From the NCBI GenBank assembly GCA_951406725.2, contig OX597833.1:35960001-36024000 (forward strand): a stretch of 64,000 bases of DNA, given 5' to 3'. Below are positions 12,523 to 13,994 of the stretch, piece by piece. Made by a program: the position numbers and the translations under genes. Positions within the stretch are counted from its first letter, which is position 1, and every line of letters starts with the position of its first letter. The notes under the pieces are model-generated. The model ran no database searches. It had not been told where the DNA came from and saw only the letters and a program-made list of their open reading frames with translations. Source of the stretch: Octopus vulgaris. Lineage: Eukaryota.

Positions 12523-12860
12523 TAAGGGTGGCTTATTTGCAATTTAACAACCGAAAGGCAGAAATATATATGTCACTAGAGTGACTAAGGACGCTGGTCA
12601 GCACCAGAGTTAAAACAATGTATAGCCACGAGAAAGCATTTATCGTGATGACTGACAGGGGAGGTAAGCTCCCTACAGCATCCGAGTATAGCCAGATCAC
12701 CAGTGATTTCGCATTTTAATTAATGCTCGTCAGTGGCTCTCACCCAACGCCTAGGATTAAACTCAACTTGTCTTGTCAGTTAATAGACCACCATAGAAAT
12801 AACACGCTTGTTTCATAAATAGTAAAAGTGAAAATTATGAATATTAAGGGTGGGTTATTC
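12523..12860 (-). mobile_element. Candidate non-LTR retrozyme monomer 1 (~322-nt unit)
   Basis: Imperfect terminal direct repeat TAAGGGTGGCTTATTTGC (12523) and TAAGGGTGGGTTATTCGC (12845); contains a canonical HHR. Confidence 0.7.
12690..12738 (-). ncRNA. Type I hammerhead ribozyme, canonical core
   Basis: Minus strand AGCCA-CUGACGA-GCAUU(AAUUAA)AAUGC-GAAA-UCAC(UG)GUGA-UC^UGGCU; all three helices pair; predicted cut between 12695 and 12694. Confidence 0.9.
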
Positions 12861-12865
12861 GCTTA

Positions 12866-12969
12866 AATGTCTTGCTCAAGAACACAACACGCAGTTCGGT
12901 CTGGGAATCGAACTCACAACCTCATGATCGTAAGCTGGACGCTCTAACCACTGAGCCATGCGCCTTCAC
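12866..12969 (-). mobile_element. tRNA-derived SINE head fragment (family C-related)
   Basis: Minus strand GAAGGCGCATGGCTCAGTGGTTAGAGCG...GAGTTCGATTCCC. Confidence 0.8.
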
Positions 12970-12982
12970 TTTATATATACAT

Positions 12983-13016
<34 letters not shown>

Positions 13017-13021
<5 letters not shown>

Positions 13022-13431
13022 AAAAAGAAAATGGAAGGGATCAATAGGTGGTTCATCAACTTTTAGACGTTATATTATACCAACTTATTTATTTATTTAC
13101 TAAAATGACAATTACAGGAATATACATACATGTATAACATATTATGCTTTACATATATGATATAAAATATATCAATATATAAAGATACCAGTAATTATTA
13201 AAATACAGGAATATAAATTGGGAAATTTTCCAATTTATATTCCTGTATGTTATTTTTCAATAATTACTGGTATCTTTATATATTAATATATTTTATATCT
13301 AAAGCATAATATGTTATACATGTATGTATATTCCTGTAATTGTCATTTTAATAAATAAATAAATAAGTTAACATAATATGTCTAAAAGTTGATGAACCAC
13401 ATATTGATCCCCTTCATTTTCTTATTGCTCT
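13017..13431. repeat. ~415-bp foldback (inverted repeat, ~200-bp arms)
   Basis: Arms are reverse complementary with a few small indels; centre TTGGGAAATTTTCCAA near 13225. Confidence 0.95.
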
Positions 13432-13620
13432 ATAAGTTAATGGTAAAATATCTCTTTACCTTCACCCATTTAGTACACTCGGTAATGTAATTGCAATGCA
13501 ATAAAAAAAACACTTGCATGTTTATAATTGGGTATTCTACCAGCAGTATATTAGATAGATATTATCTCTTAGTTGGTTGGATTCACAGCCTATAACTTAT
13601 TTGGAAATATATATATATAT

Positions 13621-13994
13621 AACAATGATAAATATCAGAGTGAGTTATCAACAGTAGCAGAAACACATCGTGATGTAAATATGCCATTTGAATATGGCTA
13701 ACCCCTAAGGGTGGATGCTACTGTAGTTTTTAGCTCCAGGAAGACATCTCCTCCAGCGGACTATAGACACACACTTTCTGTGCCCTATCAGTATTTGCAA
13801 AGGGAAGCCATCCTTCCCGTCTTCAACTTATGATGCACACGGACCCGAGTTTCAAGGTATTGACCTATCATCAGCGTGTGACAATCACAGTTGTCGATAG
13901 GAAGGAGGTTCTCTTTACAAATACATATACTTTTTCCAGTTTTCAGTGACACTGATATTGAAAAAGTGAAATCAAACAATGATAAATATCAGAG
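13621..13994 (-). mobile_element. Candidate non-LTR retrozyme monomer 2 (354-nt unit)
   Basis: Exact 20-bp direct repeat AACAATGATAAATATCAGAG at 13621 and 13975; contains an HHR with long extended stem I (13791-13924). Confidence 0.78.
13836..13880 (-). ncRNA. Type I hammerhead ribozyme, canonical core
   Basis: Minus strand CACACG-CUGAUGA-UAGGU(CAAU)ACCUU-GAAAC-UCGG-GUC^CGUGUG; self-complementary stem III ACUCGGGU; predicted cut between 13842 and 13841. Confidence 0.9.

Follow-up and report, generated by a model that had tools for sequence, protein, structure and literature searches.

Two hammerhead ribozymes flanking a long foldback in Octopus vulgaris: probably separate insertions rather than one self-excising cassette

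Two hammerhead ribozymes on the same strand, with a 415-nt foldback between them, raise the question of whether a patch of Octopus vulgaris DNA encodes an RNA cassette able to cut itself out of a longer transcript. The DNA analysed, referred to here as the window, is a stretch of 64,000 nucleotides (contig OX597833.1, positions 35,960,001 to 36,024,000, assembly GCA_951406725.2). A preliminary description proposed such a cassette and held chance clustering of insertions in reserve. We consider the reserve explanation the better one: the locus is likely to consist of insertions that arrived independently and lie nested together, rather than of a single cassette.

The ribozymes were sought with a descriptor requiring an intact core and helices I to III, applied to both strands of the 64-kb window. 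It returned exactly two complete hammerheads, both type I and both on the minus strand, while in 100 block-wise dinucleotide shuffles type I matches averaged 0.03, with a maximum of 1.

13836 to 13880, minus strand: HHR1, type I hammerhead, predicted cut after GUC at 13842/13841 (descriptor and fold model)
12690 to 12738, minus strand: HHR2, type I hammerhead, predicted cut after AUC at 12695/12694 (descriptor and fold model)

HHR1 has a 6-bp helix I, lengthened by a long bulged stem, a 4-bp helix II with a U.U pair at its base, and a helix III of 2 bp capped by a 4-nt loop. In HHR2, helix I has 5 bp, helix II has 4-5 bp and is closed by G-C, and the near-palindromic helix III has 4 bp, again with a 4-nt loop. 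The strand, type and cut sites of the preliminary description are borne out, but its term canonical is loose; it suits the 6/4/2-bp helices of HHR1 but not the U.U pair, and HHR2 has its own proportions (5-bp helix I, 4-bp helix III). In its 2-bp helix III with a tetraloop and in the U.U pair below helix II, HHR1 matches the axolotl ribozyme HHR_Amex2, whose monomer is reported to reach only 22% cleavage in 1 h (PMC7229834). Rfam at its gathering threshold gave 0 matches, and so no hammerhead, across the whole window, and at E<=10 over 12300-14500 none of its 15 matches was a hammerhead. The HHR1 and HHR2 calls therefore rest on the core and helix descriptor.

Relaxing the search to core plus helix II gave six motifs in the window versus 0.38 in shuffles: HHR1, HHR2, two others given below, and 9403 and 9986, which were set aside.

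25530 to 25585, minus strand: hammerhead motif, core 25573, with a perfect 5-bp helix II, helices I and III being decayed; not repeated within the window
31720 to 31790, minus strand: minimal Penelope-type hammerhead, core 31772, with a 5-bp helix I and an extra base after the core

The 31772 hammerhead is probably decayed, because a U.C mismatch sits at the base of its helix II. Upstream of it lies sequence with five plus-strand relatives, which end short of the ribozyme. A hammerhead-like core within (TA)n at 5623-5658 (minus) has a broken helix II and was too decayed to count. Core-like matches at 9986 and 14166 fall inside transposon coding remnants and were discarded, as were those at 9403 (+), 8261, 51712 and 63191.

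Whether the two ribozymes could act is a matter of folding. In a nearest-neighbour model the active fold of HHR1 is disfavoured by +7.1 kcal/mol, 4.8 of it spent freeing the core, which pairs with loop III, and that of HHR2 by +1.9 kcal/mol locally, +3.1 within its own unit (unit 2, below) and +3.5 in a transcript from 14000 to 12500, where its helix I has a probability of 0.04; these energies rank rather than measure, because the models omit tertiary contacts and Mg2+. By this modelling HHR2 comes closer to its active fold than HHR1 does. Pairing with a second copy could help either one, the predicted homodimer duplexes of helix III reaching -8.9 (HHR1) and -14.4 kcal/mol (HHR2). A mixed HHR1:HHR2 dimer was ruled out, with a cross duplex of only -2.9 kcal/mol for helix III and of -5.2 for helix I, compared to -13.3 and -12.7 kcal/mol with each ribozyme's own partner. 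Neither unit has a second copy within the 64-kb window, so dimer rescue in cis is unavailable. The suggestion that the second ribozyme may need a homodimer is reversed by the modelling, in which HHR1 (13842), not HHR2, most needs a partner copy.

Each ribozyme lies between direct repeats of its own, a feature absent from the preliminary description. Those around HHR1 define the following features.

13621 to 13994, minus strand: unit 1, solo retrozyme-like, period of 354 nt plus a 20-nt terminal repeat, 41% GC
13975 to 13994, minus strand: upstream 20-nt copy of the unit 1 terminal repeat, at the tip of a DNA-transposon inverted repeat
13621 to 13640, minus strand: downstream 20-nt copy of the unit 1 terminal repeat, with (AT)n immediately after
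13995 to 14402, minus strand: DNA-transposon remnant of 408 nt, terminal inverted repeats 21/24, left end in (TA)n, right tip cut by unit 1

The two repeat copies are identical at 20/20 positions, at a spacing of 354. As a control, 200 random anchors were scored as for the real repeats; two of the 200 reached the unit 1 score, and the top eight fall at three places, where they resemble neighbouring copies of a dispersed repeat. Folded as a circle, unit 1 is strongly self-paired (z = -5.9 against 100 shuffles), and in its cut-to-cut monomer the ends are predicted to share 21.6 pairs, against 5.0 in the RNA that would run from one ribozyme to the other. With a circle stabler than shuffles and ends that pair far better with each other, the structure of unit 1 fits a 354-nt circle.

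The neighbouring transposon helps to read the 20-nt repeat. When unit 1 and both repeat copies are removed, the transposon end runs into (AT)n, much as its other end does. Because that other end also lies in (TA)n, the simpler view is that the repeat came in with the unit and is not a target duplication, and the sequence favours redundancy derived from the element itself. The remnant has TA at its left end, is internally deleted and contains a frameshifted peptide remnant. We take it to be mariner-like, the peptide presumably resembling the N-terminus of a mariner transposase; Pfam gave no match for this peptide.

The unit that carries HHR2 is less sharply drawn.

12515 to 12862, minus strand: unit 2, retrozyme-like, period of 322 nt plus a degenerate terminal repeat of about 26 nt, 40% GC
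12862-12837 and 12540-12515, minus strand: copies of the unit 2 terminal repeat, 22/26 identical

Its start coincides with the break in a SINE head and its end with a (TATC)n run. Nine of the 200 random anchors reached its repeat score, which is thus modestly above background; its circular fold is not clearly stabler than shuffles (z = -1.4), and its monomer has 8.6 predicted pairs between the ends. The unit 2 repeat has diverged by 15%, yet both ribozyme cores are intact. Units 1 and 2 are unrelated to each other (best E 0.67, longest exact match 10 nt). The pair as a whole is not bracketed by any direct or inverted repeat (best score 9), and 12515-13994 holds no open frame of at least 90 aa.

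The sequence that separates the two cuts is a succession of further pieces, in the order unit 1 3' half, spacer, foldback, SINE head and unit 2 5' half.

12695 to 13841, minus strand: 1147-nt double-cleavage span, a hypothetical RNA, not a genomic element
13432 to 13620, no strand: (AT)n run plus a unique AT-rich spacer of about 175 nt, not repeated within the window
13017 to 13431, no strand: foldback, a 415-nt near-perfect palindrome, 22% GC (BLAST, arm alignment, folding)
12968 to 13016, no strand: (CT)n microsatellite and short AT-rich linker (sequence reading)
12863 to 12967, minus strand: tRNA-like SINE 5' head, body absent, stopping where unit 2 begins

A foldback and a SINE head between the ribozymes had been described before, and both are confirmed. 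The foldback is 87% self-complementary by BLAST, its arms aligning with 187 matches, 11 mismatches and 19 gap columns. Its minus strand is predicted to form 192 pairs, with a longest unbroken helix of 80 bp, and its plus strand 189 pairs. Judged on sequence, it is a candidate MITE-like element or local inverted duplication. Each arm carries a degenerate internal repeat at 91-nt spacing (13233-13266, 13324-13357). Six of the eight transition mismatches give G.U on the minus strand; this bias was set aside as not significant (one-sided p 0.14), though its direction is that predicted by the cassette. Rfam miRNA matches over the foldback were likewise discarded, all being far below the gathering score and of a kind that any long hairpin gives. 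The SINE head aligns with four relatives within the window. It has motifs that we take to be A- and B-box-like; ARAGORN found 0 tRNAs. Runs of four T at 12834 and 12827 lie ahead of HHR2. In the spacer, a possible GIY-YIG-like peptide, interrupted by stops, was spotted by eye in a six-frame reading.

The geometry set out in the preliminary description is sound: a minus-strand read-through transcript cut at both sites would give an RNA of 1147 nt, the cut-to-cut span, containing about 190 bp of duplex and ending in 5'-OH and cyclic phosphate, termini of the kind that RtcB joins (PMC7229834). Because the two ribozymes belong to different families, this interval is a chimera, not a monomer. Its predicted fold is a mosaic in which most pairs stay inside the modules. 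Between its first 40 and last 60 nt, 5.0 pairs are predicted, and the ends come close in the predicted fold, with six unpaired exterior bases. The span lacks the homologous ribozymes and repeats of a retrozyme monomer and its ends cannot re-form helix I; it lacks the type III ribozymes and LTR-like repeat of a plant-type element; and its 5.0 predicted end pairs compare to the 18 bp of a Tornado-like junction stem.

Two known systems, one natural and one engineered, resemble such a device. Plant LTR retrozymes, as described in PMC7761336, also have two co-oriented hammerheads, 600-1000 nt apart, that release a structured non-coding RNA; theirs are type III ribozymes in identical LTRs of about 350 bp, with a 4-bp target duplication, PBS and PPT, whereas the octopus ribozymes are type I and their flanks unrelated. 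The Tornado design likewise places a ribozyme on each side and leaves 5'-OH and cyclic-phosphate ends for RtcB, but uses a strong promoter and a stem of at least 18 bp to join the ends (10.1101/2023.07.11.548538). The octopus locus, in contrast, has about five predicted pairs, disfavoured ribozyme folds and no known promoter, and the HHR2 core would remain within the product.

How surprising is it to find the two ribozymes side by side? With uniform placement, two random motifs fall co-oriented within 1147 nt in 1.8% of trials, which makes the pair mildly unusual if this window is taken by itself; counting four motifs (six pairs) gives a chance of about 10% by hand arithmetic. Assuming 5,000-85,000 hammerheads in 2.7 Gb, some 6-1,600 co-oriented pairs within 1.2 kb would be expected by chance; in the giant squid genome, 235 hammerhead matches are reported (PMC6962438). 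The window contains seven foldbacks of at least 110 nt, and 8-9% of 1147-nt stretches contain one. The 415-nt foldback is the longest, and it is flanked by the only two intact hammerheads. Two others, 12077-12228 (91%) and 28391-28578 (84%), are near-perfect and lie beside microsatellites or AT-rich runs; the rest are at 1193-1352, 1348-1463, 25205-25316 and 55387-55655.

The shared orientation is a property of the region, since all four retained hammerhead motifs and six of seven LINE-remnant loci are on the minus strand (pooled p 0.012, post hoc). In mammalian introns, retro-insertions show an antisense bias. The strand bias seen here may mark an unseen host gene on the plus strand.

Otherwise the window is 22% simple sequence and 26% dispersed self-matches, with LINE and transposase remnants. 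Two SINE-like families are split between the strands 28:11 and 10:9. Long (CA)-rich arrays at 231-1136 and 44474-46361 have frame translations with a common GC-rich core and are apparently copies of one repeat family. Decayed LINE reverse-transcriptase remnants lie at 59663-62325 (minus) and 36646-37401 (plus). A homologue search with a LINE remnant returned 69 matches, among which a beetle protein was the only one with an organism name. Pfam was run on 277 of the 386 open segments of at least 45 aa (150 at E<=0.05 and 127 at E<=0.01), a scan that short exons would escape. One match exceeded its curated cut-off, a transposase (PF01359, 48232-48423, minus, 54.7 bits), and the 277 segments held no host exon and no PLE (Penelope-like element) domain. 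The idea that the cassette truncates a host pre-mRNA thus finds no host exon to act on among the segments scanned.

What, then, are the two units? To judge from their sequence, they are most likely solo copies of the animal non-LTR-retrozyme or Penelope-derived kind. Non-LTR retrozymes are described as repeats of 150-450 bp that carry type I hammerheads, have a GC content under 50% and show target repeats of more than 4 bp, mussel units measuring 350-390 bp (PMC7229834). Units 1 and 2 share with the metazoan elements of that report and of bioRxiv 10.64898/2026.07.22.740005 a type I hammerhead with intact core, a non-coding unit of 322-354 nt, a GC content of about 40%, long flanking direct repeats well over 4 bp and, for unit 1, a self-paired circle. 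They differ in that neither is tandem and each occurs once in the window. An active element is said to need two tandem units, solo monomers being common and evenly distributed, and cleavage was reported for only one of nine predicted elements (bioRxiv 10.64898/2026.07.22.740005); the window has no array of at least two tandem hammerhead units. Retrozyme membership is therefore not established, the tandem arrangement being absent and each unit known here from a single copy. Searching the literature on octopus and cephalopod hammerheads and retrozymes, with most subscription journals outside its scope, we found no octopus retrozyme unit described.

By analogy with the published model, we propose that a tandem source copy at another genomic site would be transcribed, that its hammerheads would cut the transcript to unit length and that a host ligase would close the unit-length RNA into a circle. 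A Penelope-like reverse transcriptase/endonuclease would then copy the circle slightly past one round and insert the product, one unit plus a terminal repeat of about 20-26 nt; reverse transcription of circles beyond one unit has been put forward in PMC4209133, which also distinguishes canonical from minimal hammerhead forms. Units 1 and 2 would have inserted separately at microsatellite-rich junctions, and the foldback, SINE head and DNA-transposon remnant would be further insertions into this patch that have since decayed. As each copy has a single ribozyme, neither unit would regenerate its own circle, and both would be dead-end solo copies. The sequence anatomy, the repeats, the lack of homology between the units and the fold models are results of the analysis; the origin of the units, the order of events and the lack of function we infer. 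Chance clustering, the fallback of the preliminary description, is favoured because each ribozyme has its own bracketing repeat, the units are unrelated and nothing brackets the pair. Counterpoints are the modest repeat of unit 2 and its z of -1.4, the fact that neither unit recurs in the window or is tandem, and the 1.8% placement chance.

The alternative closest to this explanation would make the units the 3' pseudo-LTR ends of 5'-truncated PLEs, their terminal repeats being 'tails' or target duplications. The source element is all that distinguishes it, and it does away with the cassette just as well. PLE insertions are reported to be often truncated, with hammerheads in pseudo-LTRs, tails of 30-40 bp and a preference for microsatellites (PMC8557442); retrozymes have been tied to these pseudo-LTRs (bioRxiv 10.64898/2026.07.22.740005), and in Octopus vulgaris PLEs are reported to cover 6.83% of the genome (PMC13282606 supplement). 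The octopus units share with pseudo-LTR hammerheads (PMC4209133; PMC8557442) the type I form, a near-palindromic helix III, adjacent microsatellites and a short terminal extension. Still, no reverse-transcriptase or GIY-YIG match adjoins either unit: none was found in 12500-14450 by six-frame reading and Pfam of open segments, which heavily decayed remnants could escape. Nor do HHR1 and HHR2, unlike motif 31772, have the minimal PLE form, described as a long helix II, an extra base after A9 and no helix III (PMC4209133). We therefore hold truncated PLEs to be an unlikely source. A further possibility joins the SINE head to unit 2 in one chimeric element, whose Pol III promoter would drive an RNA of about 270 nt ending at the HHR2 cut, independently of HHR1 and the foldback. 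The SINE head does end exactly at the start of the unit 2 repeat, its body does not resume beyond unit 2, the box-like motifs are present and HHR2 is nearer its active fold in the model. Against this, the two T4 runs precede the ribozyme, the terminal repeat sets the 322-nt period without the SINE head, and none of the four other SINE heads in the window precedes unit 2 sequence, so that such a chimera has, in our judgement, very little chance of being real.

The cassette itself could be real in two ways. Independent insertions might by accident form a working one, in which minus-strand read-through and cleavage at both sites would free the 1147-nt RNA and RtcB would circularise part of it. 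Such a circle would not re-cleave, because helix I cannot be rebuilt where its ends are joined. The two ribozymes point the same way and keep intact cores, RtcB circularised 30-80% of retrozyme monomers in vitro (PMC7229834), engineered ribozyme-flanked RNAs, with an 18-bp junction stem, circularise in cells (10.1101/2023.07.11.548538), and in the octopus RNA cross helix I is weak and the predicted ends lie close. On the other side are the unfavourable energies in the long transcript (+7.1 for HHR1, +3.5 kcal/mol for HHR2, whose helix I has a probability of 0.04), the lack in the window of a partner copy for dimer cleavage, and about five end pairs in place of an 18-bp stem; the strand bias of LINEs (6/7) and hammerheads (4/4) would, if the antisense bias holds, fit a host transcript on the plus strand. 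We rate an accidental cassette as improbable, and doubt to much the same degree that any double cleavage takes place at the locus. Of the self-excising cassette, then, the geometry survives, while unrelated and separately bracketed units, a mosaic interior, disfavoured folds and the missing ligation stem speak against the rest. The other way, a single composite element moved or kept whole as a two-ribozyme capture vehicle, is hardly credible. Proximity and co-orientation (1.8% by uniform placement) are in its favour, but the parts have no common terminal repeat or target duplication and have decayed unequally (20/20, 22/26, 187/198), microsatellites and a truncated SINE lie inside, and the structure of unit 1 fits a circle of its own.

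The likely reading, independent insertions, adds two probable retrozyme-like families, which is of use to transposon annotators and not surprising. Unit 1 offers a clean case of the footprint, one unit and 20 nt more, that reverse transcription of a circular template should leave. It is tempting to speculate further that two retrozyme families with no relation to each other happen to have assembled a natural excision device with two ribozymes, yielding an RtcB-closed 1147-nt circle, although we think this very improbable; a targeted literature search of titles and abstract starts found no report of unrelated ribozyme insertions cooperating in this way. If true, the product would be a non-recleaving circle with an AU-rich duplex of about 190 bp, open to A-to-I editing by ADAR or to Dicer and small-RNA production. 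Hammerhead-dense genomes would hold tens to thousands of heterologous pairs. In a broader context, unrelated ribozyme-bearing insertions would cooperate to circularise whatever separates them, an unrecognised, splicing-independent source of circular RNA that would capture host or transposon sequence.
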